The translations under genes and the position numbers were made by a program. A DNA stretch of 64,000 nt from assembly GCA_036172245.1 (NCBI GenBank), contig JAYWIR010000014.1:620001-684000 (forward strand), read 5' to 3'. This stretch comes from Raillietiella orientalis (Eukaryota). A model generated the notes under the pieces. The model was not told the origin of the DNA, ran no database searches, and worked only from the letters and a program-made list of their open reading frames with translations. This document shows, piece by piece, positions 5,541-64,000 of this stretch (its first letter is position 1; each line of letters starts with the position of its first letter).

Positions 5541-7685
5541 TCCTTGAAGGTCGCGTTGTGTCGCGGTCGCACTCGGACGTGCTTTGTTAAGAGTTCCAAA
5601 GTCCTGGCTTTACGTGGTGTTGTCGCGTTGCTTCAGTGGTGGAGGGAAGGCAGAAATGCCTGAATCCACCACGAAAAAGTGTCAGGAGACACTGAAAGAT
5701 CGTCTTCCGTACCCATGGAGGTGGGGGCATCTGCTCGCGAAGCTTCATCCCCCGCGCCGGCCAGGGAATATAGCGAAGTGGTCGCCTCGCCCTCTGCAGA
5801 GGCCGAGGCCGAGGCCTACAAGACCTACGGATACAACCCTAGTGTACTCTACAAGGTAGGCAGGGTTTTCGATGATCACACTGGGCGTTCTTTCGAGGAG
5901 GAGTTGTGCAGATTGGACGTGAGGAAGGAAGACATGACGGGGCTCACAATCAGAAGCGGGGCTCAGCACGTAGAGATGACCTGCGAGGAGGTGGGACTGC
6001 TGCGAACCCCCGTGAAGATCGAGGGCCACCAGGTCTTTCCCGTTCCGGTGGACGACTCCATCGTGGTCCACCTAAGGGGCATTAACGTACGGATGCCACC
6101 AAGCGCCGTACGGGAAGAACTCGAAAAATTCGGCACAGTCCAACAGATCCCGCGTATTTGACGAGATCCTTAGTGGGCTCGTCGCGGTGCGCATCACGGT
6201 GGCAAAGGACATAGGGCTTCTCCTTAAACTGGTGGTCGGTGGAGAACCCATCGACCTCTGGTACTTGGGGAAGCCCAACTACTGCCGCAATTGCGAGGCT
6301 ACCGGGCACCTCAAAAAAAGATGCCCCAACATCGCATGCCGCTAGTTCGAAACGAAGGGGCGCACCGAAGAACGTGCCCCAAAAAGGTTCCGCGAGATCC
6401 GGGTGCTACGAGCAGTAAAACAAGCGCGGACGCGGAAAAATCTGGCAAAGCCAGATCAAAGAACTATAGAAAGGCTAACCTGAAGCAAGTCGAAAAGGCC
6501 ACGTCGATCACATCGCCTGTGGGAACGCAGGCTGCCGAAGTGGAAGGAGTGGAACCTGGCTGGCAAATGGTCAGCTACAAAAAGAAAAATAACAAAAATA
6601 AATTGACCTCCAAAGAAACCGCGAAAAAACGATTTCAGAACGCAAAAATGCATGCTTAACCTGCAGTGCACTCCCGTAGTCGCGAAGCCATGGCAAAATG
6701 GACGTGGCCGTGTGCGACAACGCCGACAGCCCCGCGACAGTGAAAACAGTCATCGAGAATTGCGGAGAGCCGCGACGACGCGACCTTCTCCAAAGCGACA
6801 GAGGAGCTGGCCGCCATGCTATGGCAGTCCGTCAAGGTAGCGAAGAAGGCTGACGGACGTCCGGCCCCCAGGAAGAAGTCCGATACCTCGGACTCCGACC
6901 CAGTGGTCGGAAGCACACCATCCACGTCTGCAACCCTGCGGAAGCCTGGCCGGAAGTTCAGGAATCCCAGGAGGATCGACTCTTCTGAGGATGGGGAATC
7001 CTCCGGAAACGAGGATGCAGTGAACGTGGGAGCTCAGGACTCATCTCCTGATACTCTCCCACGCTCACACGCGGAGGCGGAGGGGGTCGCCGAGGTGCCT
7101 CCAGCCGCAGGGTCCCCAAGCAGCCCCCCGCCCGAACCGGAGGCGGGGCCGCAGCATCACTTTCCCAGCAGTAATGCCAGGACTCTCCACCTGCCGTCGT
7201 CTACGCGTTGCTAGCTGGAATGCCAACAGGCAACACGACGACGTCAGGAGAAGAGACTCACTGTGATACAAAGAAATGTTCAAGAAGCCACATATAACTA
7301 AGCGACTAAGACTTCAGCACACTGTAAATGTTTTCTTGGCTGCATTGAATTCTTTTGAAAGTTTCATGTGGCCGCCGAAGACGCCATTTGCCCTTCATAT
7401 TGCTTGCAAATCTTCGATTATTTACGGTTTGAGATTGTAGGTGAAATCCACATCGATCACAACTGCTTCAGGAAAATTATTGTCCTATAATGGATTTGGG
7501 GATGTCGAACATTCGTTACGCCCAGCTTGTTTGTTTGTTTTTTCAAGTACAGTTTTTCAAGAAGCCACATATAACTAAGCGACTAAGACTTCAATGGATT
7601 TTCGACCTAGTGCTTCTGCAGAAGATTCACCAGATCTCAGCAGAAGACTCGCGAGAGATCGAAAGGATAGCGGGCGCTCAGCTCC
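5540..7685 (+). mobile_element. 5' part of a Tx1-like non-LTR element (copy E): frameshifted ORF1 (RRM-like region plus CCHC knuckle) and start of the ORF2 APE endonuclease
   Basis: ORF 5679-6161 (VHLRGI..ELEKFGTV) shifts frame into WYLGKPNY-CRNCEATGHLKKRC (6283-6324). ORF2 begins MPGLSTCRRLRVASWNAN (~7173), and FDLVLLQKIH (~7600-7630) resembles the APE 'LQETH' motif. Confidence 0.85.
7279..7593. repeat. ~315-bp insertion bounded by exact 38-bp direct repeats, interrupting the APE coding region of copy E
   Basis: TTCAAGAAGCCACATATAACTAAGCGACTAAGACTTCA at 7279-7316 and 7556-7593. (A)ATG is duplicated on both flanks. Confidence 0.85.
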
Positions 7686-8944
7686 TTTTCGCCCGGGCGC
7701 TCCGGGGCGTTTATTGCTAAACTATCCAGGAACGAAGTTGCCAGACAAAGGGTACAGAGGCACGGAGGGAGGGATCTCCGACACGCAGGTCGGTATAACC
7801 GAAAGTCCGGAACGGGAGGGAGGGAACCACCAATAAATATATAAAAAATATTAAAAAAAAATATGGGGTGGGTGCTTAGGGACAGGGGTCTTTGGTATCG
7901 TCCGTTCCATCCTTTCAGAACCGGCGTTGGATGCCGGAGATCTTCCTGAGGTCTTCTAGAAGATGAGGCCACCTGGAGCCGACGTCATGTTGTCGTCGGC
8001 TATTCTGGTGGCCTCTCAAAGAATCGCCTGCGACTCCAGCTGTCGGTGGGCCTTGTTGATGGCGCGGATGCAACAGATCGTTGCGATAATCGTACCTAAC
8101 GACAGGCCGCCTGGCGTGAAGAAGCGGCGCCTCAAAATTCTTGAGGTGTCCCCCTGGTGCAGGAGAGCTGGAGCCAGTCTCCGCCATAGTCCCTGGAGGG
8201 CATCGCAGTCGAAAACCAGATGCGGAAGCGTTTCTGCTGCTCAGCACCTTTGACAGTTCGGGGAGGCAACTCCCCCGGAAACAATGTTCGCGCGCTGGTT
8301 GCAATGGAAGTCCCAATGCACCAGCAAGATCACGTCCTGCTTCCATGAAAGGGAGAACACAGAAGTGTCCACGCACGAGGGAGGGACCACTGGTTCTTCG
8401 GGAGGCACATTCAAGAGTTCGCTCCACCGAAGGAGTCCCTTCGGAATGTTGTGAGGCGTGGCGGCGTCTGCCAGCTCGCTAGTCCTCCAGCCGCCCATGG
8501 GTCGGGTTGCTCCTGCGATCGTGCAGGCAACCTCCCACCTTGCCGGTAGGCAACTGTCCTCTCTTGCCCTTAGAGAAGACAGCGCTGCGGCGAGGGGTAT
8601 GGCGGCCAGGCGAGTCCACTTGTCCTGATCCTGCAACACATCCTCCGTCGGAGACAATGGGGAAAGGTGCATGCAATGAAGTTCAATGAGCAGCACTTCC
8701 TGATGCCTTGCCCAGGACGATGAGGTTTCCTACCGTCAGGCGTTAAGGTTCGTCGGGCGACAGGAGATCCAAGTGTGGGCTTCCAGGAGCCTGTAGATTG
8801 GTTTCAAAGGGAAACCGAAGCTTCTCGTGGCGCGATCTGTATGCGGCAACAACGAAAGCAGTCCTTCGCTGCCGGTGCAGCGCCGCAGTAACAGGCGCGC
8901 GGGAGCACGCCACGCAGTCAACCAAAGTTTGTCACAAAGTGCCG
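7686..8944 (-). mobile_element. 5'-truncated, decayed Tx1-like element (copy A): post-RT region, zinc finger and 3' UTR
   Basis: KLWLTAWRAPARLLL, ELADAATP..GLLRWSELL and PNCQRC*AAETLPHLVFDC are homologous to copy D. Ends AATAAACGCCCCGGAGCGCCCGGGCGAAAA (7715-7686). Confidence 0.85.
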
Positions 8945-10169
8945 TTGGTGCATTCCAGCCCGCCGTGTATTCGGGACGGAAGTGCTGGAGTCTCATCCTT
9001 TGTGCTCCGGCCGGAAGATAAGAAGATGCGGACTTCTCCTGGGACGCATGGCCACCCTGGCAAAGGAGAACGGGTGGATGGCCTGCAGCCCCGCCAACTC
9101 CAGCGCATGGCTGGAAGAAACAGTTGGAACGTGGGCAAAGTTGAAACACATCAGTGGAGAATCCTGCAACCGCCTGCGCACCGGCATCTACACCCGCTGC
9201 ACGCTGCGGAACATGATCATGTGTCCCGCCAGAAGCACTTGGGCGGAGACGACCCCACTGGCCACAGCGCTGCCCTTCCTACGAAGGGCGCTTCAAAAAA
9301 GCCGGAAGCCGAGATGGCAAGTCTCCTGCCGGATAGCGGGCAAGGAGAAGGATCTAAGCGGGTGGACAATGAGGGAACTGGCAGACGCCGCAACCCCAAG
9401 CGTTCACCCTCATGGAATACGGAGATGGGGCGAGCTGCTTGGCATCCCGGCGGATGACCTAGAGTGGCCCCCGTTATTTAGAGACGCATCCACCCTCCCC
9501 CTCGAGTGGCAGGAAACGGCGCTGTTGTTGTTGCACTGGGGTCTTCCCTGCAACGCGCGCCGCCACCACTGGACGTTGGGGAACGTGGGACAGAACTGTG
9601 CAGTGTGCGGGGAGAAGGAATCCCTCCCCCATCTGTTAGTGGACTGCGCTGCCCTCCGGCCCTTGTGAGAACGTTATGCTACGACCCTCCCTATGCCGGT
9701 CGGCAGTACCCCCAGAGACGTTCTGAGACTCCTCTTCGTGCGAGACGCCCTGCCACCAGCCTCAACCCTGGCAGCGCTCTGCTGCCTCCGAGGGATTGTG
9801 GCCGCGTGGAGCGCAGCCAACAGAGGAAGCAGCGATAGGGACCCCATCGTACACGCGGGTCGCTACCTGCGAATCGCGATCGGCTGGTCCCATCTGGGAG
9901 CTATGACGAGAAACCTCGAGGGCATCCTGGAAAGGATGGTCTCTTCCTCTAGCGGGTTGTGATCCCTTCCCGGCCCCCCAAATAGTTTCTTTTTGTTATT
10001 TCATTTATTCTTCTTTTTGTTTTACCCCCCCCCCCCTCGCTGCCGAGGAGAGTCAAGCCGGTCTGCGAACCAGCTTCCTGGCAGGTCCCAGGAACTATTG
10101 GCCGTAGCGGGGCCTAGTACCGCAGATGTACTGTTTTTTAATAAACGCCCCGGCGTGACCGGGTGAAAA
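8945..10169 (+). mobile_element. 3' part of a Tx1-like element (copy B): post-RT region, zf-RVT-type finger and 3' UTR
   Basis: ORFs 8982-9668 and 9693-9962 carry CAVCGEKESLPHLLVDC. Ends AATAAACGCCCCGGCGTGACCGGGTGAAAA (10140-10169). Confidence 0.9.
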
Positions 10170-11683
10170 CTTCCCCGCGTCCAGTGGAAGCGGCGCGCGT
10201 TGCAGGGTAAGCCCCAGTGCAACAGTAGCAGCGCCGACTCTTGCCACTTCAGGGGGAGAAGCCTGGATCCGATGAGAACTGGGGGCCACTTCAGTCATCC
10301 GTCGGGATGCCGAGCAGCTCGCCCCATCTCAGAATTCCACGCGGGAGGGCACTCGGGGTCGTGGCGTCTGCCAGTTCTCCCATGGTCCAACCGCTCATTT
10401 TCTTCTCTCTGCCTGCGATACGGCAGGAGACTTGCCACTTCGGCTTCCGGCCGCTGGTTAGGACCCTCCGTAGAAAGGGCAGCGTCGAAGCTAATGGGGT
10501 GGTCTCCGCCCACGTGCTCCTGGCGGGACACTCCAGAGTGCTCCGCAGTGTGCAGCAGGCGTTGGGGCCGAATCGCAGGCGGTTCCAGTTTTCTTCTCTG
10601 CTGTTGTTCAACTTCGCCCACGTTCCAACGGTTTCCTCCAGCCAGGCGGAGAAGTTGGCAGGGCTGTATACTATCCAACCGTTCTCTCTCACCAGGGCTT
10701 CCATGCGTCCGAGGAGAAGGCCGCATCTTCTGATCTTCCGGCCGCGGCACAGAAGATAGGACGCGAGCCCTTGCGTCCTGGAAACACGGCTGGCGAGGAG
10801 GCGGGCCGAAACGCACCAAGGGGTGCTCCACAACTTCACTGCGATGGCGAGGGTGCGCCATCGCAGCTGGATCTCCAAGCGCTCCAGTGTCAGGAGGCCA
10901 AGACCGCCGTCCCGACGCGGAGCACATAAATCCTTCAGAGGCACACGAGGCCTCCCGCTGCCCCAGAGGGCTATGCGAAGGAGGTCTTTAGTCCTCTTCT
11001 TCAACTGGGGGGGGACGGGGCGAACAAAAAGCAAGGGGCGGAGGATGGGGGCCGCGAACGCGTTCCACACCGCGGCCCGTTCCGGCAGAAGGAACTTGCC
11101 TTCCAGGAACGGGCCGATTGCCAACTCCACTTTTTGGAGACGACCTGACCAGGCTTCTGCGAGGCAGAAGTCCCCCAACGGGACACCCAGGTACTTCAGG
11201 TACCTGGCCGTGGGGATCTTCAAGCGGATCCACGGTCAGATTAGGTCGTCCAACCCATGTCGCACCCACCGCTACCACCGATGACTTCGCCTTGTTTACC
11301 TGGAGTCCAGTCCCACGGCTTAGCAGATCGAAGAAATCCTCGACTGCGGCTGCCGGGGCGGACATGGGCAACATCAGCAGAAGATCGTCGGCGTATGCAG
11401 CTACAGCGGGCGTGCCGGGGCACGAGCTAGGCAAGGCAGCCAAAGTCACCCTGTACGCTCTCAGCACCATCTCGAAATAGGTGCTAAAGAGCAGGGGACT
11501 AAGGCTATCGCCCTGCCGTATGCCCCGCCGTACCGGCACGCCGTAAGCTATTTGTCCGCTGAAAGAGACGTTGATTAACAAATTCTGCCAGCAGGAGCGC
11601 AGGTACGAGAGTAGAGAGGGTGGGAAGCCCATGCGACCCAGGAGCTCCAGCAGGAGTTCCTGGTCGACGCAGTCGAACGCCTT
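10170..11683 (-). mobile_element. Tx1-like element copy C, main part (RT motifs KAFD to YLG and post-RT region); frameshifted, 3' end missing
   Basis: KAFDCVD, GIRQGDSLSPLLF, AYADDL, KYLGV, RRDGGLGL and HWGLPCNARR. Close to copies B and D. Confidence 0.9.
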
Positions 11684-14600
11684 GAACTGGTCGCAGGAGG
11701 GCCAGGAAAGAATTTTTCCTTGCCCTCCATCGCGACTGGTTGACCGAGGCAGGCGTGCGGAATGCCCATCTGGTTGCAGGCGATTTTAACGTTCGTCTGA
11801 AACCGGATGGGCCGAATCACGAGCGGGACCTGGTCAACGAGGTGTGCGCGGAGGTGCACACTTGTAATTTGTTGGCCAGTGTACCAGGGATGGAGGACAA
11901 CATCGATCACGTGTTCCTTGACGAGCACCTGTGCACTCGTGTGGGCAGGCGCTGCAAGTTACCGTGCGAGCTGTCCGACCATCGACCAATCGTGATTGAA
12001 ATCCATCCGCGCGACAGGGGCCCCCCCTCGTCAGCGTGGCGTTTGCCAGGGGACTGGCTGAAGCTCCCGGACGCGACGGAACATCTCCGCACGTTTATAC
12101 GGAGCTTTAGGATGCAGACACTTAAGGATTGGGACCGCTTCAAACGGTCGGTCCAGGAGTTCTGCGACCAGTTCCCTCTGCACCGCCTACCTGCGGGATT
12201 TGGGGACGGGGTACGTAACGAACGAGCCTATCTGCAGGCTCGCCGTTACGCCAGGACCCCCGACATCCGCAGGCTGGCGGAATACAAAGCGGGAGCCGAG
12301 AGGCAAGCCTGGCAGTCAGGATCGGCCAGCTTGCTGGACGATCAGGGCCAGGAGCATTCGGCACCCGCTCAGATCCGCGGTCTGCTGCGGCGTTTTTACT
12401 CCTCCCTGTACGCAAGAACGCCTCCCGAGCGGAATTTCTCACGAATCCTGCTTCCGGAAGGCGCTCCTGCGATCGAGGAAGAGGAGAAAAAGTCCCTCGA
12501 CGAGCCTTTCACGATGGGCGAGATCATCTCGGCCATCGGAAAGCTCAAGAGGCGAAAGGCTCCAGGGGAGGACGGCCTGTCCGCGGAGTTTTATCAAACT
12601 TTCGCGGCTGAGCTAACCCCCCTGGTACATCAACTCACCTTGCTGATACGCGAGACAGGTGACGTTCCCGCCTCGTTTCGTTCGGCAAAGGTGCGGCTTC
12701 TCCCTAAGGGAGGAGATCTGAGGAGCATGAACAACTGGCGTCCCATCACAATAGTGAATGCGGATGCCAAGTTGATAGCTAAGGTTTGGGCTGAGCTCTT
12801 GGGACGGGTTGCAAACGCCTTCATCAGCCCGGAACAGACGTATGCTGTTCCGGGGCGAAGCATGGAGGCGAACCTGTTCCACGCTTCCACCTGGCTAGAG
12901 CTCCAACAAGAAAGGAGCTTGGTGCGCAGCCGGAATTCCGGTGCGTGCGCCGGCAAGGGGTCGGATGGTCGGGTGGGGGAGGGAGCCCTTGAGGTCGCAA
13001 TCGACTTGCGGAAAGCATTCGATTGCGTCGACCAGAATCTCCTTCTGGAGCTTCTGGAACGCTTGGGCTTCCCGGCCTCATTAGTGGCCTATCTGCGCTC
13101 CTGCTGGCGCGACGCGCTCATCAACGTTACTTTCAGCGGGCAGACCGTGCACGGCGTGCCGGTGCGGCGTGGGATCCGGCAGGGAGACAGCCTGAGCCCC
13201 TTGCTCTTCAGTACCTACTTTGAGTTGGTACTGAGAGCGTACAGGGGAACTCTGGCGCACCTGCCGCACGACTGTGCCGGTACGCCGGCCGTTTCAGCAT
13301 ACGCGGACGACCTTCTGCTGCTGCTCCCTATGTCCACCCCGGCTGCGGCGGTCGAGGAGTTCTTCGACCTGCTGCATCGGGGAACCGGACTTACGGTGAA
13401 CAGGGCGAAGTCGTCCGTGATGCCAGTTGGTGCGGCGTGGGCAGGGCAGCAGGACTGGGTCCGTTTGGGGATCCCCACGGTGAGGTACTTCAAGTACCTT
13501 GGTGTGCCGTTGGGGGACTACTCCCCTGAGGAAGCGTGGTCCTGCTGACTCCAAAAAGTAGAGACGGCGATCGGCCCGTTCCGAGGCGGCAGGTTTTTCC
13601 TGCCTGAACGGGCCGCGGTTTGGAACACGTTCGCGGCTCCTCTCCTCCGCCCCCTGCTTTTTGTTTGCCCCCCCACAGAGAGAATTAAAAAGCGGACAAA
13701 GGACTTCCTCCGTATCGCCCTTTGGGGCAACGGAAGGGTCCGAGTCCGCTTAAAGGACTTGTGCGCTCCTCGTCGGGACGGTGGTCTGGGCCTCCTGACG
13801 CTGGAGCGGCTGGAGCTTCAGCTCCAGTTCCGATTGTCGGCACTGGTTCCAGAGTTGTGGTGCACCTGTTGCTGCGTCCCTGCACGTCTCCTTCTCCAGC
13901 AAGCCACCGGCAAGACGGGACTGACGTCGTTTCTTGCACTCCGTCGCCGCGTCAACCGATGCGGACTCCAGCTACGGAGGGTGGCTGCGCTGTACCGGAA
14001 AAACCCAGGATTGCTCACCTGTCGCCCTTTGAACGGTAGTGCCTGGTTGCAGGAAACCGTTCGAACGCGGGGACAGTTCGGCATGCAACGCTCCCAACAG
14101 GAACGAAGGTTCCTGTTTGGGGGTTACAGAAGTTGCACGCTACGCGAGATCCTGGAGGATCCAAAGAAGAGAGCGTGGGCAGGAAGAACCCCCCTCGCTG
14201 CTGCGCTGCCCTCCCTGATGGAAGATCTGGACAGCGATGTTGCGGCGAAGTGGGAGGTTACAGTAAAAATCTCCGGAAAGGAGAAGATAGGAGAGTGGAA
14301 GACGGGCCAGTTAACAGACGCTGCGTCCCCGAGTACGCCTCCCAATGGACTTCTGCGCTGGGGCGCGCTGCTCGATGTTCCCATTGAACATCTGAAGTGG
14401 CCCCCGGTGCTCATGAACACTTCCACCCTCCCCTTAAAATGGCAGGAGTCGGCTCTCCTGTTGCAGCACTGGGGACTCCCCTGCAACGCCCGCCGACACC
14501 ACTGGACCTGGGGAGCGGTGGACCCCAATTGCGTCAGGTCTGGGGAACAGGAGTCCCTCCCCCACCTGCTAGTGGATTGTGTTGCCCTTCGGCCCCTTTG

Positions 14601-15114
14601 GTTTCGCTTTGCCGCGGCCAGCGGAATCCCCTGCGGCAACCCCAGGGACGCACTGAAAGCCCTCTTCGTTGCCGACGCCCTTCGGCCAGCGGCCTCGTTA
14701 GCAGCTCTGTGCTGCCTTCGCGGGATCGTCGTCGCCTGGAGCAAGGCTACGGGAGGACCACACGACCAGGGTGCCATCCAGCCAGCTTCCCAGTTCCTGA
14801 GGAGGGCGTCGCGATGGCCCCACCTGGATCCAAGCATGCAGCAAGAGCTTGCCGGCATCCTGCAAAGGATGCAACGGCCCCACCAGCAACTGTGATACCT
14901 TCCCATACCCTCCCAGTTTTTTCTTTTCTTTTTGTTTTGTTTTTTTGTTTTTCCGCCTTCCCCCTGCTGCCGTGGTGGACCGTACCGGTCTGCGAACCGG
15001 TGACCCGGCAGGCTCTGTGTTTCTTCGTGCGTGGCTGGAGCAATGGTCCAGCCACTGCACGTCTTTGTAAATGTTTATTTTAGAATAAACGCCCCGGCGA
15101 AATCCGGGTGAAAA
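11684..15114 (+). mobile_element. Young 5'-truncated Tx1-like element (copy D): partial APE, RT, zinc finger and 3' UTR, with an 11-bp TSD
   Basis: GDFN, IDH, SDH, APGEDG, NWRPI, DLRKAFD, QGDSLSP, YADD and KYLG are in one frame to the stop at 14895, broken only by TGA at 13546. TSD TCGAACGCCTT at 11673-11683 and 15115-15125. Confidence 0.95.
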
Positions 15115-15190
15115 TCGAACGCCTTCTGGAGATCGACCGCGATCGCTGGGGCTCCCTTCCCCTCCCCGGTGTCCCTTCCCAGCCCGGCAG
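15115..15190 (-). mobile_element. Upstream remainder of copy C, displaced by insertion of D
   Basis: Minus strand reads AGKGHRGGEG then PAIAVDLQKAF, which continues into C's KAFD at 11683. Confidence 0.85.
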
Positions 15191-15950
15191 GCGTGTGCGG
15201 CAGCTATAGAAGTGGAGGTCGTCTGCAATTGATCCATAAGCAAGGCACCGGAACCTCGTGCCGCACGGGATGCCTCCGTGGTGAAACATCAGGAGACAGT
15301 CTTTAATGTCCGGCGGCAGCGCGATTCTCCTGACCGTCCTAATAGCTGTGGGTCGAGAGCAGCATTTCCAAACTTGTTCCTCATCTTCCCCATGGCCTCC
15401 GCTGCGGTGACATCTTTCGGTATATTCAAGTTGCTAGTTGGGGCGTTCGCCACAGACCACTGCGTACCTTGGGTTTGCAGACCTCACGGGTGCTGTGGGT
15501 TCGTTGTTTGTAGGCAAGGACTTGCTGCGCGTGGAGGACTCCACTGTTGTAAAGTCTCTAGATTAGAAAATGCCCCTAAGCGCGAGGTTGTCCAACGAGA
15601 CATCGCCTTTCCTTGACTGGGGTGTGCCGCAAGAAGGGATGTCCTCGTGCAGAGTTGCACCCAGACTGGAGAAGCTTTCCCAACTTGATGATTTGGGCTT
15701 GCCGAATGTGAAGTCCGCAGACCTGACCTTGGATATTCCTCTCTCGAGCGTGCACTTTACTGCAATTCTTCCGGACGCGTGCCTCCCCGCTGTCCACTGC
15801 CAGGTTTGTTCCTCTTTCTGTCGGTCGACCTGGGTATGAAATCCTCGTGAGCCGGGGGAGCTTCTAACCCTTTTTTCACTATCGAACGCTACGTCCTTTG
15901 GAATGAAGCTTGCACTTCCGGATCCGGAGAGGTCAACAGTTCGAAGCAAC
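15190..15950 (-). mobile_element. F-family L1/Tx1 fragment (copy H)
   Basis: LPPDIKDCLLMFHHGGIPCGTR and IADDLHFYSCR align with F's PEIRNHL/DFHHGRILCG and IEEDLHLYTCQ. The 5' boundary is approximate. Confidence 0.7.
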
Positions 15951-15999: not shown

Positions 16000-18480
16000 T
16001 GTAGCAGCATGCAGGTATTTGTTAGTCGTTAATACAATTGTTTGCTAGCTGTTTGATGCTACTATTTATTGAAAAATTTCCACTCCAACACGTTGGTTAT
16101 TCCCAGCCATTCACTGTTCAGGAAAAAGGAAACTTCTCATGACATCCATGCGTTGCCAAGAGAGCAATTCGCAATCCATTCTTGCAATCGCTTTTGTATT
16201 AATCTACTGTTTGGTGACTCTGGTGAGAATTGTCCAACAACTAAAGATTTGTCCAACTATTCGTATGTTTCACTGAAAGCCATTACCGGGATCTTCTCCG
16301 ATCCGGGTTTTCTCCGATCAGAAGGTGAATTTGAAGCTCAGGCTCCTGCTCTATGCGAGTATTTCTTTCGCCTTTGACAAAGAAATCCGTGGGTGGGGGC
16401 ATCTAAAAGAGCGCTTAGAGAATTTTTGTAAATTTCTATGCTATTGGTTTACGGACTCCAAAGTGCTATTGGTGAACATTTTCTGGGATGGATTGATAAC
16501 CCAGCTTTCTGCCCGGAGTCGCGAAACAGATGCAAGTCCTCATGAAGTCGATCCTCTAGCTTTTCTGCCAACACCAGATCGTCTGCATACATCAGCATGG
16601 AGTTTCCTCCAAATGACTCTTCTATCTTCCGTAGAAGAGGTTCTACTTTCATGTTAAATTGCGGGAAGCTAAGTAGGCATCCTTGTTTATGCCCAACAAA
16701 CCTTCATGGCACTAGTGGTCTGAGATCCCTTTTGTGAATACGTGCATGCATCTGTATACGGGGGTTCTTGACGATGCTTTCGAAGATCTCTTCCAGTGTA
16801 CATGCTCTGATATGCCAGTGAAGCAGATCCTGAGATTGTTCTAAGCAGATTCTCCAAATCTATGAGTGAAATACATAGGTTCTGTGAAAATCTTGTAGTC
16901 ATATCGAGCCTGGTTTACAGACTCCGTCATATGGAAGGAATCCCTCCTGCTGCAGGTAGGAAGTGGTTGTCAATGAGATGTTCTCTCAATCTTCTAGAAA
17001 GGCATTTCGTAAAGAGATAATAAGTACAATCTGAAATACCACTGTTCTCTTCCCCATACTTGTTTCTGACGCTGAAGATGCATGGAACTCTTCTAATGTA
17101 TTGGAATTTTTCTAAGCCTGAGGCATATGTCAAAGATTTTTGCTAACATTGCTCATTCCGGATCCACCTATTCCAGGCATTATAGAGATTATATCAGATT
17201 ATCATTATATGTTAAACAGATATTAAACAGATCTGGGGAATAACAACGCGACTTGGTCTGCCTGGAATGGTGTAAGATCAACTGAGAAGAATAGGTTGCT
17301 CCTTCCTATCTTGCATCTAGTTTCGAGGGAATTGTGGGTGCTTCTTTTTCGAACTTATTAACAGAGTGTTCTTCCACTTCCGCAACAGGAAACGTCCAAT
17401 TCCTATCCGTTAGCCTCAGGATCGCTCTCACTGCCCTTCGTCAGCTAATCCGGTGTAGCCTTTGTATTTACTGCGATTCCTCTTTTTATTTTCCTGGGCG
17501 GTTTTACTTCAGGGACATCGCGAGATTTTCCTTGATTGAGACAGTTCGTGTTCGGAGTTGTTCCAACATAGGTTCTATGAGCTGTTGAACTCTTAAAATT
17601 TGATTCTTCGTTTACAAACTGATGTGACTGGACCCTTTATTCCAGGTTTCCGCTTTGGTTTCTTCCATTTTCCTTCAATTATACCTGGCTTTACTACGAG
17701 TGACCGTTGTGAAACTTTCTTGTTCTTTTTTAGTTTTGGTTGCTTTAGCATTTATCACCTAGGATGCACACTTTGGCCCACTGGATAATGTGCATCCTAG
17801 ATAGATCACATTTATTCCTTTCTCTCGAACGCCATGACTTTATTCCTTCAGTTGCATGCTTGATCTGTCTTGATCCGACCCATTTCACATATATCTCTGC
17901 TCCCTGCGGTTGCCATGATCCAGTTTGCTTCCTCTGAGGATGTCCAGTAGATCATGCAGTGCCTTTCATAAAATAGTGGCAGACTCTATGGGCCTTCAAT
18001 TAGTCAAAAATATCGGATTTCGCACTTTCCGCTGTTCCTGGTTCCTCCTTCTTAATAAGTCAAAAATTTCCTCTTATGCCCATATTAACGGACAGCTCGT
18101 TCAATTTCCTCCAAATCTTCATCGAGTGATTTTATCAGGATTGCCAAATGCAAGTCTAGCAATTCTGATATCACCGTGTTCTCTCTAGAACCATGGTCTT
18201 CATTCGCATAACCCTATGTATAATTCTACAATGCCTTCCTGTTGGCAAATCTCATGTTGCATTCTGGCCTTGAGTTAAGACAGAGTTGAGGACTATACTT
18301 ATACTAAGAGTTGAGGACACGCTCATGACTAGAGTACTTTCCGCTTGTGCTGTATATCTCACATACTCTGTATCTGTCTCAATTAATTTCATGTACCCAT
18401 TTGATGTGCAGTCCACTCACCTCTGCAAACTTTGAAACGAAAAGGTAGAAATAGTAGATCATTGCCTACGGAACAGATTG
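16000..18480 (-). mobile_element. Heavily decayed non-LTR retrotransposon, probably RLE-type (R2/NeSL-like)
   Basis: GIKQGCLLSFPQFNMKVEPLLR (~16693-16630) and MYADDLVL (YADD 16589-16578). Possible N-terminal C2H2 remnant GLHIKWVH near 18400. Confidence 0.65.
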
Positions 18481-43899: not shown

Positions 43900-46250
43900 C
43901 AGCATATCCTTTGAAATCTTCGGATTCGCGACTGAAAGATGTCCCTATGAGGACGGGTAAATTTCATTCCCTCTTCCCTTCCTCAGGGGATCGTGAATCC
44001 GAGCGAACAGAGAATCATTTCTTTGTCAGAAAGCCTCTAACTGTTGCGTGGTGTGGTTTGCTTCCCAGCTTGCAACAGGTGAGGAGAGAGTGACTGTCAC
44101 ACCTCATCAGGTCTAGATGGGGGAGCTGAAACGAAGCGTCTCCAGTAGCGATCCTTCGCACGTCGGGGCAGGTCGGAGATAAGAAAGGAAGCACATGGTC
44201 TTACCGCTCTTCCTCCGTGCATCTCAGCACTCTAAAGTGGATCTGTCATTTTCGCGCACCTTATCTTCTCATACTACGTGATGACGAGCGAGGAGGCAAA
44301 TCTCTGCGTTGACAAGAACTCCTGGGATCAGACGCGCGTTGCAGTGGCGTGTCCTCAACCTCCAAACAACCAGGGCTCCAGACTTTTTCTGAGGCACTTG
44401 GAGAAGGCTCCAGGTTTCCTGATCATCGAAAGATCCGCGTTAGGTGCGAAGTTCGACCGTTTGATGCCAGAGACGGGATGTGTATCAAACAGAAGCAAAG
44501 GTGCATTCGGTTTCCATAGAGAAGCCTCTGCAGAGATTCCTCTCCTTCCTCTCCCCTTTTTCTATGCGACAGCTTCTGTGAGGTTCCTTCCAAGAATCCG
44601 GGTTCTCTGGAAGAAAGCCACCATCCCTTCCTTCCCAGCCATACTGGAACCCGTGCTGCCTCGCTTTCAGCATTCCACGAACCATCCATGCTCTGGGCAA
44701 GCCAGGGTCTCGTTCCAGATGCAGAGGCCGGAACTTCCCATTCATGATGACGAGAAAGCACTTGGGGAGGTGCTGATTTTTCACTTGGCGGGCAAGGTCA
44801 AATTCCATGGGATGCAGCAATCTGTAGCAACAGTTTTTCCTCGTAAGCAAAGGTGAGACGGCGGGGAAACCTCGGAAAGTCAAGGACAGTCCAGTCAACA
44901 AACTCTCACAGTTTCACTTTCGCCGGCATCAAGGCTATCCCGAGTCTGTAAGTTGGCCCTTTCCCTTCGCATCGAAAAAGAAAAAAAGGTCCATCGTTCG
45001 CTTCGAAGTGTCGATTCTTCGAAGAAACCCCCAGCACCAAGCAGTCACCAGGTAAGCGCTTTGTGGTTTTCCCGCTACCCACCTCGAGAATTCCCACCCC
45101 CTACCCCCTCCTCGAAGTCCCGAACAGCCAGGCTGCTCGGTCTGTTCCCCGAGTGTCTCTTTTCAAAGCACCCCCTAATTTCTCGAAGGGTGCAGCGGCT
45201 GCACCTCTTTTCTCGCGAACGCTGACTTGAGCCGAGCGAAGGAAAGAAACAAAACGCGCAAAATAATCGACAAGAGGAAACTCAGGTGAAAGCGCAGCAA
45301 GCTCAGCATCCTACTAACTCCGAATCCTCTGGCGAACACGCTTGCTTCGTTTGTGCATGCGTCAAGATGTTGCCAGCTTCAGGGAGAAGGGAGGTCAGGG
45401 AGGAGTAGGCGTAAGAGCAAGGAGGGAAGGCTGCACTGGACGTCGACCCGCACTTGGACAAACGGACGTCCGATTGTCCTCTTTTTCAAGGAAGGGAATG
45501 CTTTACAAGTACGGATGGGCCGTCACCGTGCACTGGACCGCCTCTGTCTGCGGGTCCAGTGGCGCTTGTTATCCTTGCTGCCGTCCGCAAAAGTTCCCAA
45601 CGCGCGCCTTAATGGAAGGTTATTTTTGAAGCAGACTCGGCGTCCTTGGAGCGAAACTGTTCCTGGAGGACCCAACCCGAGATCCGAAGTACCTTCTGCA
45701 CCGCTCGGCATGACGCCATTCGAGAGACAAGGTCACCGCCGTTTTCTTCTTGCTTTCGTTCACTGGCTATCTGGAAAGCAGAAGAGGAGACTAAACTGGT
45801 GCCTCCTCCCCTTCGTCCTTCTCAGGAAATGAGGGGCTGATCTTCGTGGAGAGGGTTGAAGAAGAGATAAGGAAGGTGGGTAGCTTCCCGACAAAGCAGC
45901 AGCTTTCTCTGATAATCACCTGCACCAAGAAATTCAACGAGCTAATGAAGCTGCTGTTCCAAGGCGTGGAGGCAGGTACCACTGTCGCCACTCATCCTAG
46001 GTCTTCCGACGGAGGAAGCTGCAAGGAGGGTCGCACCGGCACCGTCTGCGAACTCGACTGCAACTCGCTTGCGCGAAAGATGGAGGCGGCGTCCACCGGA
46101 AAGGGTGCAGCCTTGCGCGAGACGGGTTCTTTGAGCGGGAGCGCAGCGCTGGGCCGGGACCACCTCCTCCCCCAAGGGAGAGAGGCCTCCGCTTTCGGAA
46201 TAGGGGGGAAGAAGGGGTGGACCTTACGTTGGCTCCGAGCATGGCGCACT
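43900..46250 (-). mobile_element. Very decayed L1/Tx1-like ORF2 remnant
   Basis: Ordered motif remnants on the minus strand: FISSLNF (~45940), ACTNEASVF resembling AYADD (~45350), and RCTEEER*DHVL finger (~44200). Confidence 0.45.
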
Positions 46251-49929: not shown

Positions 49930-50650
49930 ATTTCGGCGTTCCGGATTTTGATCGACCCCGTACCCCAAGAAGCAGCCGAAAATTCTTCCACGTTGAAAGC
50001 AAAGAAAGAAAGAAAGAAAAGAAAAGAAACCCGCCATCTTATTTCTAAGGTTGAGCGGTTCTCAGTACTTCACGACTCAGTGGTTATTACTAGAAGTGCA
50101 GCCTCGGACATCAGCAACCACTCCAGGTCGATTTCGTTCCTCGAACCCTTGCACTTTGCGCTCAAGGGACCGGTGCTGCCCAGAGCTGCGACCTGGAGTT
50201 CTGAGGAGCAAATACGCATGCGGTCACGGTTAGACCTCGGAGCTGCTGCTTTAGTCATGACCATGACTGAAGCTGGAGCGCACCAACTAACCGCTAAGAT
50301 CCGTTCCAGGTTCCACTCAAGAGGGACGTGAATACTTTGTGATCTGGGAACGGACCCAGCATAATCACTGGACCCGTTCCCGGATCCATGACCCCAGATT
50401 ATCGTTCCCAGATCACGACTGGTCACGTGCCCATAACGCAAGTTCGACTGCGCGCAGCTGCACGTGCAGCAATGCATTTTGCCACGGAAGCTGTTTGAAT
50501 TCCACGCAGAGGGTGGGCAAATGTTGCGGGGACAAGGCAGAGGTGAACCAGAGCTCTCTTCAAGGCTGGCAGCTTTGGTGCGAGCATGGTGGAACCAGCC
50601 CTCCTTGCCATCCCACATAGGCAAAAAGCATTCCTGTTTTTCACATGCCG
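49930..50650 (-). mobile_element. Probable further F-family L1/Tx1 3' fragment
   Basis: RDLGTIIWG resembles F's VAIGTILWG. A T-rich tract follows on the minus strand (49997-50029). Confidence 0.4.
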
Positions 50651-52199
50651 CGGGGGGCCATCGGCACTGTCGTCGCTCTCACATCCGTGCCGGTGAGGTC
50701 GATGGTTCAGTTGAGCTGTGGACCAAAGTTCAGTTCACGAACGGGAACACCCTTCTCCACGGCTGAACCCCTGGAATGGACGCGCGTCGCTGCCGTGGGG
50801 GTTCTTCAGCTCTCCAGAGATTCTATGACATGAACTGCTCCCGCACATCCTCTCCCCACAAAGAGAGGCTGCTCACCTGGTAATGCTATGGGTACCAGAC
50901 CAAGTCTTTTCCATCGAGCATGCACCTGCGAGTTTGTGGTTTGACTCTAGACGAAAGCGAAAGGGGATGGGTGGGGTTATGTTCAAGGGACGCAAACACA
51001 CACATGCAGGAAAAAGCCCCTGCTTGTGCTCCAGAGGCATGGTATCCGAAGTACATCTCCGACTTGGACCTGTGCACTCACATCCTCGACAAGTTCGATC
51101 TTGACCTGGATTCCTCGCATCCAGGCCGGTCAGATCTGACGTACCGGACTCGAAGGAAGGAGCTTGCTTCCCTAGCTCTCGAATATGGGCAGTTGAGTGT
51201 TCCAGGGACTCGGTGCTGGAAGGAAGGGGCTTTGTGGTTCCAGAGGCAAGCAGATCTCCCGGATTCAATATGCTGAGAACGAGACGCGGACGTGGACGTT
51301 CGTCTTCGACCAGCTACAGCGCATGATGCGGGAACACGCCTGCAAAGAGTATCGATCGCTGCGTGTTCTCTCTGCTGCAGAAGGAGTGCGGATTCGGAAG
51401 GGAAGCCATCCCTCAGCTGCAGGACATTTCGGATTTCCTCAAAGGTAACCGGGAACATCTGGGTCTTGTCGATCGCCGAGACGGTGCCCTTCCGTTCCTT
51501 TTCTGTGCGCTACTCCACGGGGCCTGTTCTTCTTTCAAAGTCACAAGCCAGACTCTTCTCCCTCCCGGAAGGTTTATCGCGGTGCGGCTGCAAGGAAGGA
51601 AGCGTGCGGCTTTCTCAGACCATTCGTCAGAGTTTGTCCCGGCAGTCTCTACAGACATGCGGTAGAGACGACACCTTCTTGGTGGTCCCGGGAAAAATCA
51701 GCTTACGATCGGCAGAGGTGCCAGGGTGGTCGGAACGCATTCTGGATTCTCGAAAACCCGCCCCATGTCCAAACTCATGTCCGATTTCCGCGGTTTCTCT
51801 GCCATGCCTCTTTGAATAAACGATAATTCTCACGAGAGGACACGCAGATTTTTGATTAGCATTCTGGTTCCAGGAAAGACTGGTTTCACCCCGAGACCGG
51901 TTTCTGGTCTCGTCAGCTCACGCGACTTCCTCAACAGCCTCGCTTTCCGAATGTTCCAATGCACTCAGTATGTGCGTCATCATTCGGCTCCTGAGTACTC
52001 GCCAGAGCCGTAAGTATTTTTGGATTTGCGTATGAAGTCGCTCGCGGCGCCCAGCACGCTCGCGGTGTTGTCAAAAGCTCCCTCTTTTGATCTCGCGGAC
52101 TAATTTCCGCTGAGCGTGCTCTCGGTGAGCAGCGACACATTCAGGACCCGGGTCCTCCCGTTTTCTCGTGATAGCGGCAGACAGCTCCATCAGGTGTGG

Positions 52200-52520
52200 C
52201 ACTGGAACGAAGCTTCTGTGAGTTGGAGACCGGACGCCCCCTCTGACCAGTCGGAATTTAGGACGGACCCTCCGGAGTCCTTCCAGGAGTAACGGAGCTC
52301 TGGATTCTCTTTCAGTTTGTATCATGGAGTTGGTTCCCCCTCGGGGAGGAGGGTTCATCTCCGGTTTGTGGAAAGCGTGCCGCTCCCTTCGGGGTTCTCT
52401 TCAGAGGAGTGAATAAGGAGCGGCTGCCTTCGGGATTCCCTTTCAAGAGTAGAGAGGAGCACACTCCATCATCAGAGCTTTCCTTGTTGTAATATTAGGG
52501 TGGTCTCATCGGGATACCCT
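52200..52520 (-). repeat. Dispersed repeat with ~40-bp internal subrepeats, copy 1 (in TH intron)
   Basis: 52384-52409 is the exact reverse complement of 59610-59635, with looser similarity on both flanks. Confidence 0.7.
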
Positions 52521-55099
52521 GGCTGAGAAACGTGTGACAGTGTTAAAAAGCACTGTGAAACTCCTGTCGCATCGCGCTCCGATGCCTATCCATTTTCCAT
52601 CCCCAGGGATTGCATCCATGAGCTTCTAGGCTACGTCCCCATGTTCGCCAACCCTTTGTTCGCCCAGTTCTCGCAAAACATCGGCCTGTTTTCTTTGGGT
52701 GCGAGCGACGAAGAGATCACTCGGCTGTCAACAGTAAGTACCGATTTCCCGTACATCTCGAAGAAACCACGCTTTTTTGTGTGGGCTCTCATTTGTCACG
52801 GGAAAGGACATGTGCAGATGCACCTTCTCCAATCCTGTTCACTTCCCTATACAGAATGCTTTTCCCTCTTGAAACTAGTAGATGGGTTGGCTGGTTGTGG
52901 AGGTCCACAGTATGTATGATGAGGTTCCAACATGCAGACATAAGTAGCATAGAAGATTGGAGGCTGTCAATGGTCTCCATGAACGCCAGCAACCAAACAC
53001 TATGTCCCAGTGAGCCAGTTTTGTCAAAGTCTGAGTTCAGATGTTGGTATTTGTTGTAAAAAACTCTCAGGTTTTCTTTCGGTCATCCATGTGAAGGACT
53101 TCCTTTCACATAGCATCATGCCGGAGCATTTTCCTCTTCGTTCTTGGGACGAAAAGGAGGAAAGAAAGGGGTGCTCAGATTCTGGTCATATGCTCCTCAA
53201 ATTCACGTATCGCAGCATCATCCACCTATGACACTTCTGAATTTCTGGGATCGTCTACTCCTCTTTACGCAGCGATCTAGCATTTTCCCCTTTTTCCTGC
53301 ATACTGCCCTACGTGAAAAGCACAACCCCTTGTGCTTGAAAAACCACCTCAAGATGCTGGTGTACGCATCTGACCATCCCGGAGTTACTCAGCATCCAGC
53401 AAGCGTTGTCAATTTGGGTCAATTTGGAAGAGAGAGTGACATCAAATCGGTGCTTGCTGTGGTATCTGTCGTTAAATTCCCAAGTTCCGCCCATTGCGTT
53501 CCTTCGATTTCTCCTTCAAGAGATGCTTCCCATGCGTCCATCCTTTCGATCAAGAGCGGTGTGCTTGCATTGGCCTATTAGAGGAGCTCAGAAGACACGT
53601 GTCTTCACTTGCAATTGGCTCCTTGATCTTACTGACGCTGCTTCCACGACACTTCTTTCTTAGGGTGCTCTCGGAAAGCTCTGCTGCCATCACTTTGAGG
53701 AAAGGAGGGAGGGGGGAAGGAGGAAGGTTTCGGGATTTCATTTTTACGGGAAATGCAGTCCCATGTTGTGTCCTGCTCCGGTCTCTCGCATGCACTCAAC
53801 AGTCGTTGTAGGCTGGGGGCGAGCGAGTTACAGATTCAGGGAAGCCAAACACAAAGAAGTGTTGCTAGCTGAATGAGTGCCATCTGAGAAGTTTTCCGAG
53901 GAGGCTGGGCATCCGTTTGCATTTAGTGGGAGACGAGGAGAGTGGACAGGTTGAATTGTTGACTGACTGTGGTCAGGAAGGCATGCACCGAGGAGGGTGG
54001 AACGCTGAAGTCTATGCTGTGGGGTGCATCAGGAGATGCTCCGTTCTCCTTTGGCCCTGCGTTTCTTCTCCGAATGGCGGATTTCGTCGCAGAGAAAATT
54101 CCCTCTTGTCCTCGCTATTTTTCATCTTCGGGGTATCTCGTGATGACTACAATCTTGGCTTTTCTTCTGAAAGAAGGATCCATCTGTGCAGAAGTTGGTT
54201 GGACAAAAGAATTCCGGGTTCTGAAAACCAAGAGGATTCCACTTATGGTGATCCATCCAAGAATCAACCAGGATTTCGATAGATAGGGAAGATGAGAAAG
54301 TCAAAGCAGTCTCGACTCGGGGTCCTCATGGGTTAAGTTCTTCGCCCAAGATTGAGAAAAGCGAAGTGAATCCATATGAGGATCCTTTCGCCCAGATGCA
54401 AATGCTCTAGTTACCTTGCCCGACGAGAACATTGGGAGGCTGCGTCAGTAACTGATACTCCAAATCGACCCCGCTTTCCAGCTAGCAATTTGACCCTTCC
54501 CCGATTTTCAGAGGTCGACTTCAAGTTTCCTCAGCAACTCTCAGCGAGTTGTCAATCTGCGGCTGCTCTTCCTGTTCCTTGGCACTTTCTTGTAGCAACT
54601 GGCTGGCAAGTGTTTCTGGTAACAGCTTCGCTAAGTGACAGGGAAGGAAGAAATCAACTCAAGGACGAACGCAGCGCTTATTCCGTGTTCCTCTGCTTCT
54701 TCCCCATAAAATTGTTTGTTCTTTGTCGTGGGCATCTTTTCCTACATTCAGGAAGACTCTCTCATTGACATCCCTTTGAGTGCTTTGTAAGAATTTTTCC
54801 GCCTAAGAGATTTTTTGTTTTAGCTCTACTGGTTCACAGTGAAGTTTGGACTCTGCAGAGAGGGAAACGCCATCAAATTCTACGGTGCAGGAATCCTGTC
54901 TAGCTACGGGGATCTGCTAAATGCCATCCCTGACAAGTCAGAAAAACGTCCTTTCGAACCGTCTACGACAGCCTTGCAAGAGTATCAAGATCAGGATTGC
55001 CAGTCAGTCTGTTCTGGACCCTGGAAATTGCCATGGATAAATTCAGGTATCGAAAGTTTCCGTTTCTAATTGTGTGTCCCTCAATAAGTTCCACTACTC

Positions 55100-56310
55100 A
55101 ACATTTCTCCTAGTCTGTTCATGAATTCTCGTATTACTCTGGAAAATTCGAGTTTCGGTGAAAGCCGAGCTTAGACGTGAAGATCCTTATTTACCAGCTG
55201 GAGGGGGATGGGGTCATTTCATCTCCAAGATTGGAGAGCAATCATTTCTGGAGTGACCACATATGAGAGCTTTCCAGAAAGCGTTCTTCTCCCACATGTT
55301 GACAGTAGTGGAATCAACCAGCCAATGGGAACAGTTCCAATATTTGTCTGGCAGCGATAGGCTTTAAAAAGACTGTAACAGCTTAAGTCTCGGACATTCA
55401 GTTAGGATCCACTCCCTCCATCCCTAACCAGGTGTCCCGGATCTTTGAATTTTTTCGGAACGTGGGCCATCACAGACAAGTGTTGGAATATTTTTCCTGA
55501 TCCTCAAACGAAGGAGTTTTTCGAATTCTTACTTCCTTGTTGAGTGAATGTTTTTCCTCAGAAAGTCTTTGTTGATGGAGACATCCTCGTCTGGATCGCA
55601 AGAGTGAACACTCCCTACTCCCTTACTTTGACTGCTTCACTCGTGCTCATCCAGCGTGCTTTACAGCTTATCGGTGATCTGTCTTCTATTCACTTTTCCA
55701 TCTTCAATTCAATTCGCTTCTTGAACTATTTGAAACAGAGGCCTTTTTTGCAGCTCCCCTGTTGTCGACGAATGAAAGTTTTCGCGGTGCAGGATGAATG
55801 CCTCCTTCCGACTCCCCAAAATCTCTCACGGAGAATTAGAAATTCAGTTATTCACGAAGCAATCAGTTCTAAGAACTGGGACTGGAACAAATCCCATGGA
55901 AGTTCTTCCTGAGCACGTGTGAGTGGATATGTGATCTGGAGCTCTTTGCTCGCAGTGAACGTGGGCGAAGTCCAGCCGGGAGTTGCAGTTTTCCTTCGGT
56001 TCCATTCCTTTCTCAGTGATTTCCTCCTTACTTTGCTTTTTCTGAGGAACCGCTGAGACTTGGTAGAGGAAACCATTCAAATCATTCTGAGATAACCGGC
56101 GCTGCTATAGGAAGGATATCCTTTCCGCCTCAAGCGAGACAGGATTGCAGCCGCTGGATTCGGGAGCACGCTTGACGAACAGATGCCTCTCGAGGGTCAG
56201 TTCCGCACGCAGCTCGCAACACATCAGTATGTTCGATCAGAAGCCACAAAACAGAGTGATCTTGTGCTGGGCGCTTCTACGTAGTCGTTCCATCGGAACG
56301 TGAATGCTAA
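55100..56310 (-). mobile_element. Decayed L1/Tx1-like APE-to-RT remnant
   Basis: FRWN at ~56295 (14 nt identical to 63932-63945), SRLDFAHV..PDH (~55980-55930), and CDGPRSE resembling G.DG..EF (~55470). Confidence 0.5.
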
Positions 56311-57349
56311 GACCTCTTCGGAGACCCGGAGGGAACTTCAAGAGGTGGCAAGTACTCCACGAGATGGAGCCACCTAAAAACCTTCCAGGATTTCGGATCC
56401 CCTGTTAGTGCATCTGTGGCCCCAGTCCACGGAATCTAAATTATTCCGCCTCGCTAGAATGAACCCTGGAGTGTTCCCTGATCAAATGGCTGCTTCGTCC
56501 GACGCTCGGAGCGCCAATCGAATAGAGCGGCTCCGTTGGAAGTTTCGAGGGAATCATCATGAGAAAGCGGTCTCGTCTGCTGCGGAGAGAAGGGAACCAA
56601 AGACACGGAACGCCAAGAGTTAGCCCTTTCGGTTGGCGCTCCTTTTTCCTCCTCCTCTACACTCGGCACGTCACTTCGCCGAGAGCTTTCTCGGCGGGAC
56701 ACGAACCAGCCAGCGGACTCGTTTCTCTGACGGAGACGACGAAGGGCGGGGCGGCTGGAGGCGAGCGCGCCTTTGACGCAACCCATCGGCAGGGCAGATG
56801 ACAAGAGAGAGGGGGGAAAAAAAGTCCCATCTACGGCAAGCGCGGGTTGCATGCAGAGGCTAACTGATTATGGACTCGGGCTCATAGCGTGGACCCGTAA
56901 TCAGCGTGAAGACGGATTTCTCAGCTCGGATCGAGCATGCGAACTGCCTTCCCGTGACATCTTCCTCGCACGAAATCTTTCCCAAGGAGAGAGGGATGAA
57001 CTTTCTTATTAATGGATAAGACGATGGGGTAATTTTGGTCGTTGAGAGATGAACCGAATTCTCTCACGAGTTCCTTTTTACCTGGTACTTACATTCTTTT
57101 CCGTTTCTTCCTCTTCTCCTTTCTTATTGTGCTCCGGTTCACTTGGATGGTCATTACTGGTTAATGGCGAAAGAGCAAAAGATGGATGATCGTTTGAGTG
57201 GACTTTCGCGCTAATGGCATTTTTTTATTCATTTTTTTTATTCAAGGAAAAGTAGGCAAAAGAGAAGATCAGGAAAAGTAAAAAGCAACCCCCACAAATC
57301 CTCTTGGCAGATGGCGTCCGCTGAAGCTTTCGGTAGATCAGGGCCACCA

Positions 57350-63960: not shown

Positions 63961-64000
63961 AGTGACCTGGCTGAAAATCCATAGGCATAAGATTTAAGGC

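Follow-up and report, generated by a model that had tools for sequence, protein, structure and literature searches.

Does a small hairpin with a near-invariant loop, repeated in the diverged 3′ untranslated regions (UTRs) of a single retrotransposon family, represent an RNA structure that has been kept by selection, and if so, what would it be kept for? The question is raised by 64,000 nucleotides of Raillietiella orientalis DNA (assembly GCA_036172245.1, contig JAYWIR010000014.1, positions 620,001 to 684,000 of the forward strand; hereafter the window), in which a GC-rich island at 7.7-15.1 kb (∼0.53-0.61 GC, as compared with ∼0.3-0.45 in the surroundings) consists of nested truncated copies of one family of retrotransposon lacking long terminal repeats (non-LTR), a long interspersed nuclear element (LINE) encoding an ORF2 protein (ORF2p). 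Four copies, A to D, were mapped. A, B and D contain a 3′ UTR, and a preliminary description of the locus had pointed out in each of these a hairpin with a CUGCG(A/U) loop, here called H2, which was proposed to be a cis-acting RNA element.

The three hairpins were re-read from the sequence and proved to be as described. In copy D, ACCGGT-CTGCGA-ACCGGT is located at 14984-15001 on the plus strand; the full inner hairpin, UACCGGU-CUGCGA-ACCGGUG (14983..15002), has seven pairs including a U.G and a loop at 14990-14995. Copy B contains AAGCCGGT-CTGCGA-ACCAGCTT at 10055..10076 (+), which as RNA forms AAGCCGGU-CUGCGA-ACCAGCUU with one C.A mismatch and a loop at 10063-10068. Copy A, on the minus strand, contains CCGAC-CUGCGU-GUCGG at 7793..7778, with the loop at 7788..7783. 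An outer CUGCC/GGCAG stem that had also been reported encloses the inner hairpin in D (14967-14971 with 15007-15011; module 14967..15011) and is likewise present in B (10040-10044 with 10080-10084; module 10040..10084, +) but is not convincing in A. All three hairpins are located 3′ of the ORF2 stop, in the 3′ UTR, and each is preceded by a tract rich in T and, after it, one rich in C. The distance to the AATAAA signal, which had been given as roughly 70-90 nt, is 63-82 nt when measured from the 3′ end of the hairpin and 73-94 nt from the start of the loop. A fourth, more distant member of the set (copy F) did not withstand examination: the hexamer CTGCGA does occur at 986-991, yet no stem flanks it, no ORF2 likeness is found upstream at E values up to 10, and the covariance model of H2 does not match it.

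Conservation of pairing was evaluated after the three tails (A, B and D; n = 3 copies) had been aligned with MAFFT. Within the inner stem of H2, 19 of 21 cells pair, and four of the seven pairs are changed on both sides: U-A to C-G, G-C to A-U, A-U to G-C, and U.G to A-U. Two of these double-sided changes distinguish A from D and are the adjacent swaps, G-C to A-U and U-A to C-G, that had been noticed previously; the other two distinguish B from D. All four substitutions in the H2 of copy A are compensatory. The ACCGGU stem of D can be read as a direct repeat too; the case for pairing rests on these four transitions in A. With the outer stem included (12 pairs), 93.5% of 31 cells are paired, a level equaled in 8 of 500 shuffles, whereas sliding the partners by 1-3 columns lowers the paired fraction to 16-48%.

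In order to allow for the searching that had preceded the choice of H2, every 7-bp hairpin with a loop of 3-9 nt was scored. H2 ranked first among all hairpins scanned in the tail alignment, which has 319 columns. A threshold of 19 or more of 21 paired cells together with three or more compensatory pairs was reached by no hairpin in any of 500 column shuffles, nor in any of 500 local shuffles of the GC-rich UTR segment. The ORF2 coding sequence of the same three copies, 1068 aligned columns, served as a control and yielded one hairpin at 19 of 21 cells; it is situated within ∼130 nt of the 3′ limit of that alignment and is designated H0 (see below), and the remaining ∼940 columns contain none at the H2 level. 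RNAalifold, applied to the 3′-terminal ∼360-375 nt of each copy, predicted H2 without prior input, together with H0 and two further hairpins, H1 and H3. The loop behaves differently from its surroundings: five of its six positions are invariant, as compared with 20-50% identity in the neighboring UTR segments, and the only other conserved island is a tail word, AATAAACGCCCCGG, which is invariant at 14 of 14 positions. The kept pairing, the near-invariant loop within diverged UTRs and the RNAalifold prediction therefore support a selected, cis-acting RNA structure, as had been proposed. The proposal requires amendment in one respect, in that H2 does not stand alone but belongs to a set of four or more conserved hairpins.

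According to the predicted folds, H2 forms part of a more extensive structured domain that occupies the 3′-terminal ∼350 nt of the element. At the 3′ end of ORF2 lies H0, a hairpin in two tiers. In D (14769..14821, +) it is composed of an outer stem, GGGUGCCAUC/GAUGGCCCC, and an inner stem, GCUUCCC/GGAGGGC; in B (9838..9891, +) the corresponding stems are GGGACC/GGUCCC and GCGGGUC/GAAUCGC, and in A (7967..8013, −) they are GGCCACC/GGUGGCC and GCCGACG/CGUCGGC, with a folding energy of −29 kcal/mol (z −5.8). It lies ∼70-125 nt upstream of the stop codons of D and B. With 93.3% of 45 cells paired, six pairs changed on both sides and none of 500 shuffles equaling these counts, H0 is better supported than H2. 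The ORF2 protein is poorly conserved across H0, and in A a stop codon precedes it, which points to a constraint that is more at the RNA than at the protein level. H1 follows just before the ORF2 stop, as GCAUCC-UGCAAA-GGAUGC in D (14855..14872, +; stop codon at 14893-14895) and as CAUCC-UGGAAA-GGAUG in B (9923..9938, +). In A the words CAUCC and GGAUG are present 16 nt apart, but RNAalifold pairs the region otherwise and H1 is ambiguous in this copy.

The terminal hairpin, H3 (CGCCC-CGG..CCG-GGGYG), is located directly after AAUAAA and is followed by GAAAA. This arrangement occupies 15084..15114 (+) in D, where H3 reads CGCCCCGG..CCGGGUG, 10140..10169 (+) in B and 7686..7715 (−) in A; the H3 loops among the copies are AGCG, CGUGA and CGAAAU. 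All three copies terminate in CCGGGYGAAAA with exactly four A residues and diverge from one another immediately beyond. The end of D is further defined by an 11-bp direct repeat, TCGAACGCCTT, at 11673..11683 and 15115..15125 (+), the target-site duplication that is the expected mark of target-primed insertion; it fixes the limits of this copy at 11684-15114 and begins right after the fourth A. No target-site duplications were found for copies A and B. The family thus ends precisely, with four A residues and without a poly(A) tract. Between H2 and AAUAAA, D additionally contains a strong private hairpin, GUGCGUGGCUGGA..UCCAGCCACUGCAC, at 15029-15062 (+), where B and A instead form weaker hairpins that differ from it and where no contigs of the public run described below align; the position of a hairpin may be conserved here, its sequence is not.

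The H2 module was sought elsewhere in the window and beyond it. The hexamer CTGCGW occurs 65 times in the window. A scan for CTGCGN loops closed by stems of at least 4 bp returned only A, D and a single 4-bp match at 15724..15711, which has a CTGCGG loop and lies outside any tail. A covariance model of the module, run over the window with filters off, recovered its three training sequences only, the next match having an E value of 4.2. The 64 kb thus hold three tails and three H2 modules, all attached to ORF2. Evidence from outside the window comes from the contigs of one public run, X1, which were matched at 80% likeness and gave 18 short pieces, 8 of them listed. X1, probably a DNA run, was the sole run listed with part of the stretch; RNA runs were absent from the list, which carries no information on expression. 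Depth is concentrated in three islands on copy D: the end of the ORF, up to ∼14885; 14956-15019; and 15068-15115. The gaps at 14892-14955 (partly skipped as a repeat) and 15020-15067 are uncovered and are not read as signal. One of the listed contigs (681 nt, depth 18) matches D only at 14960-15012, with four differences and none listed within 14960-15001, and its flanks are unlike D. This single contig fits a conserved H2 island in what may be another subfamily. Scanning of metagenomes with an alignment of the ORF2 C-terminal part yielded 202 pattern stretches, none of them related; nine metagenome loci with the tail pattern were set aside as GC-rich, bacterial-looking sequence without UTR context. 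A scan of viral contigs gave nothing related, and two weak matches in bacterial metagenome-assembled genomes from a scan of prokaryote genomes (26% and 40% identity over short stretches) were disregarded.

The ORF2 frame of copy D places the family. It contains a reverse-transcriptase (RT) domain, RVT_1 (Pfam, 2.7e-22), and the best solved relative in the PDB is human LINE-1 ORF2p (7.7e-41), with R2 proteins at ∼1e-12 to 1e-14. Full-length database relatives are at most ∼30% identical and combine an endonuclease, RT and zf-RVT (PF03372 + PF00078 + PF13966); one 619-residue protein is 76% identical to the ORF2 of D. Pfam gave no match for the C-terminal part of D's ORF2, and zf-RVT is present in 24-46% of members of the nearest Atlas clusters of this part. 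By sequence likeness, the element is an L1-clade LINE in the broad sense, either L1 proper or Tx1.

What, then, might the structured tail of an L1-like element do? Stem-loops in 3′ tails are recognized in LINEs of the stringent type. In the zebrafish elements ZfL2-1 and ZfL2-2, ORF2p is described as binding the tail stem-loop through general contacts with the stem and specific contacts with the loop (PMC4176376), and in the eel element UnaL2 the cognate ORF2 protein recognizes the 3′-tail stem-loop (PMC1636434). A covarying stem with a fixed loop in the 3′ tail is what H2 has in common with these systems as they are described there. UnaL2 and ZfL2, however, belong to the L2 clade whereas the ORF2 studied here is L1-like; their hairpins are terminal whereas H2 has an internal position and three other hairpins beside it; and binding and mobility are reported for them whereas H2 is predicted from sequence. 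The terminal hairpins of UnaL2 and ZfL2 are followed by short 3′ tandem repeats. Copies A, B and D have no such repeats and end in GAAAA.

Most L1-clade LINEs are thought to pick their templates through a poly(A) tail. Structured, stringent tails have been reported in this clade from very few lineages, as summarized in PMC3472496. One is the monocot LINE1-1_ZM group, which shares with ZmSINE2/3 a conserved 3′-end hairpin with compensatory changes; another is the Chlamydomonas pair L1-1_CR and SINEX-3_CR. Both are read there as stringent recognition within a mostly relaxed clade. The present family resembles LINE1-1_ZM and L1-1_CR, so far as these are described in that source, in being of the L1 clade and in that diverged members keep a 3′-end hairpin with compensatory stems and few fixed loop or flank nucleotides. 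The details differ. LINE1-1_ZM is given there a UCU loop and a CGAG 3′ flank, whereas the loop here is CUGCG(A/U) and the tail AAUAAACGCCCCGG..CCGGGYGAAAA; H3, with the loops listed above and a GAAAA 3′ flank, differs from it as well. L1-1_CR is listed in Table 1 of PMC3472496 as ending in (A)n, unlike the exactly four A residues of copies A, B and D. No named plant protein exceeds ∼30% identity to the ORF2 of the present family. Both of these tails were, according to the same source, identified through their partner short interspersed nuclear elements (SINEs), and none was found in the 64-kb window here.

A further precedent is SART1, a LINE in which the structure of the 3′ UTR, combined with a defined 3′ end, makes reverse transcription begin accurately (a 2004 study, cited in PMC3472496). 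SART1 differs from the present family in belonging to another clade, in being telomere-specific and in having a poly(A) end. Its essential motifs reportedly lie internally in the UTR. A full-text literature search for CUGCG with “retrotransposon” returned nothing relevant among the matches listed; in PMC13000458 the CUGCG pentamer occurs only inside R2 construct sequences. The preliminary description had not recognized the motif. No Rfam family is matched: at gathering threshold, Rfam 15 identified only a U5 spliceosomal small nuclear RNA (snRNA) in the window, and a scan of 7600-15200 at E values up to 10 gave 11 chance-level matches, all of them outside the tails and outside the H2 of B and of D. 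The sole match overlapping a copy of H2 is Six3os1_1 at 7731-7812 (−), with 15.4 bits as compared with a gathering score of 50 and an E value of 7.5. The CUGCG-loop tail signal is most likely a known kind of signal in an undescribed L1-like family.

On these grounds we favor, with a probability of about 0.6, the reading that H0 to H3 constitute a cis-acting tail handle for template selection by the element's own proteins, as in a LINE of the stringent type belonging to the L1 clade. The tail domain would act in cis on the transcript of the element, where the ORF2p reverse transcriptase, possibly with ORF1p, would select its template through the tail for target-primed reverse transcription. Terminal H3 with GAAAA would set the start point of reverse transcription, and the invariant loop of H2 would be contacted in a sequence-specific manner, its stem being required only to pair. 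The reasons for reading the tail in this way are the free but paired stem, the fixed loop, the precise end and conservation across ∼36-50% ORF2 identity. As a candidate for the start signal, H3 at the GAAAA end is at least as good as H2.

Several observations weigh against this reading, or against the part that H2 is given in it. Only three copies are available, and the structure was picked after they had been viewed; three sequences put formal covariation significance of the kind provided by R-scape out of reach. The hairpins fold as proposed when taken alone (−8.7 kcal/mol for D, z −2.85; −5.7 and −6.8 kcal/mol for the others), but within the full 3′ UTR the partition function gives H2 a pair probability of 0.00 in A, 0.007 in B and 0.15 in D, and forcing its formation costs 6.2, 0.2 and 1.2 kcal/mol, respectively. 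The 45-nt module has weak z-scores of −1.35 (D) and −0.51 (B). The minimum-energy fold of D uses a competing triloop hairpin, GUGGACCG-UAC-CGGUCUGC, in which the 5′ arm of H2 pairs with sequence just upstream (14975-14993, +); a competing hairpin of this type is also the minimum-energy fold in A (7802..7790, −) and is absent from B. As a conserved structure the competitor was rejected, with 75% of its cells paired and 193 of 500 shuffles doing as well. A structural switch between it and H2 is conceivable but unsupported. ACCGGT is palindromic, so that the stem of D is equally a direct repeat. The H2 loop lies ∼97-119 nt short of the 3′ end, whereas recognition hairpins in the best-studied cases are terminal. 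The 64-kb window contains no SINE or other short element with the H2 module, and for H2 both ORF2p binding and a role in mobility are inferred.

Some of these points lead to the explanation that H2 is non-functional, a product of residual UTR similarity, chance complementarity, the palindromic ACCGGT and post-hoc choice from three copies. The small sample, the poor thermodynamic support in context and the amount of sequence scanned before the hairpin was picked would all be accounted for in this way, and so would the 8 of 500 shuffles that equal the observed counts, particularly as related sequences can exceed shuffles without any structure. Against it, H2 outranks every other hairpin of the alignment and is matched by no column shuffle, the coding control contains nothing comparable outside H0, RNAalifold finds H2 independently, the changes in A are all compensatory and the X1 contig retains just the H2 island. 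We regard this explanation as improbable. Less probable still is that the palindrome acts as DNA, whether as the site of a dimeric protein, as an antisense promoter element or as a hairpin in first-strand complementary DNA used for second-strand synthesis. Inverted repeats are symmetric in DNA, and pairing does not distinguish the strands of H2, with 19 of 21 cells paired in the sense and 18 of 21 in the antisense orientation; indeed the C.A mismatch of B becomes a G.U pair on the antisense strand. However, the arms vary while an asymmetric loop is fixed, and a protein-bound DNA palindrome would be expected to keep the sequence of its arms. The neighboring H0 and H3, moreover, hold G.U pairs that are valid only in sense RNA. 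We therefore give a role at the DNA level very little credence.

A more serious alternative accepts H2 as a real RNA structure and assigns it to a host factor, with a function in 3′-end processing, RNA stability, nuclear export or localization, or control of ORF2 translation. The internal position of H2, its placement upstream of a perfectly conserved AAUAAA and its location after conserved U-rich and C-rich tracts that resemble protein-binding tracts would suit such a function, and H3 alone could supply the start signal for reverse transcription. Nothing in Rfam, including the known processing and stability elements, matches H2, however, and there is no obvious need for one LINE family to have maintained such an element over 36-50% ORF2 identity; we consider a host-factor role unlikely, although less so than either of the preceding explanations. 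Three narrower ideas were discarded. A tRNA-like H2 is contradicted by ARAGORN, which found no tRNA-like genes in the window, and by a loop of 6 rather than 7 nt; kissing between the loops of H2 and H3 showed no consistent complementarity by eye in the three copies; and an ENE-like triple helix involving the U-rich tract was rejected because the tract is one-sided and Rfam gives no match.

The preferred reading of a tail handle for template selection admits a bolder form. The last ∼350 nt, including ∼130 nt of ORF2 coding sequence, might constitute one four-hairpin recognition domain, similar to the structured 3′ UTR of R2, with the CUGCG loop as specificity determinant common to lineages of only 36-50% ORF2 identity, and the family might represent a lineage of L1 that is ancient, strictly stringent and independent of poly(A), with subfamilies that cross-mobilize. 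We hold this form tentatively, as possible rather than probable.

The copies that provide this evidence were mapped by tblastn of D's ORF2 frame against the window. Copy D (11684..15114, +) is a 5′-truncated LINE with a partial endonuclease, RT, a C-terminal domain and the 3′ UTR; its ORF2 frame of 1068 codons (residues 1-1068, 11686 to 14892) served as the reference and is interrupted by a single in-frame stop at 13546-13548, for which reason we consider D to be fairly young. Copy A (7686..8945, −) contains the C-terminal third of ORF2, with several stops, and the 3′ UTR; the match covers residues 717-1013 (8945 to 8058) at 36% identity to D. Copy B (8949..10169, +) likewise contains the C-terminal third and the 3′ UTR, and matches residues 729-1061 (8949 to 9938) at 51% identity. 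A and B, both 5′-truncated as is D, thus encode ORF2 proteins only 36% and ∼50% identical to that of D, and the copies therefore represent old lineages. Copy C (10160..11698, −) is an internal ORF2 fragment without a 3′ UTR, matching residues 438-946 (11698 to 10160) at 45-76% identity per segment.

The copies look nested inside their own family. The target-site duplication shows that an older copy, of which C is the 3′ part, received D in opposite orientation, and a short remnant of that older copy is located beyond D at 15114-15188. The 3′ end of B adjoins C at ∼10160-10170, and the junction of A with B, at 8945/8949, is head to head. Just past the 3′ end of D, at 15116-15147, X1 contigs reach a summed depth of ∼20-22; this segment is repeated DNA, consistent with the older LINE copy. 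The U5 snRNA match, at 16334-16450 (+), is full-length (61.9 bits; gathering score 40) and is separated from the LINE cluster by ∼1.2 kb. At 44000-46000 and 50000-64000 there are other GC-rich stretches (0.45-0.56 GC) with ORFs of ∼200 amino acids; the ORFs of these stretches have no Pfam match and no likeness to the LINE ORF2, and the stretches may be other degraded repeats. Pfam searches with nine other long ORFs, from within and around the cluster and from the GC-rich part at 44-64 kb, gave no families.

The tail organized around H2 opens no new kind of mechanism. An L1-like family that combines a precise A4 end with a covarying multi-hairpin tail would nonetheless be a useful comparative case for the evolution of template recognition in the L1 clade, and the tail would provide a defined RNA module that can be sought in SINEs of the Raillietiella orientalis genome. 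If the four-hairpin domain were to prove correct, subfamilies could mobilize one another, together with any RNA that acquired the module, and the family would offer a handle on L1-type template recognition as it was before relaxation.

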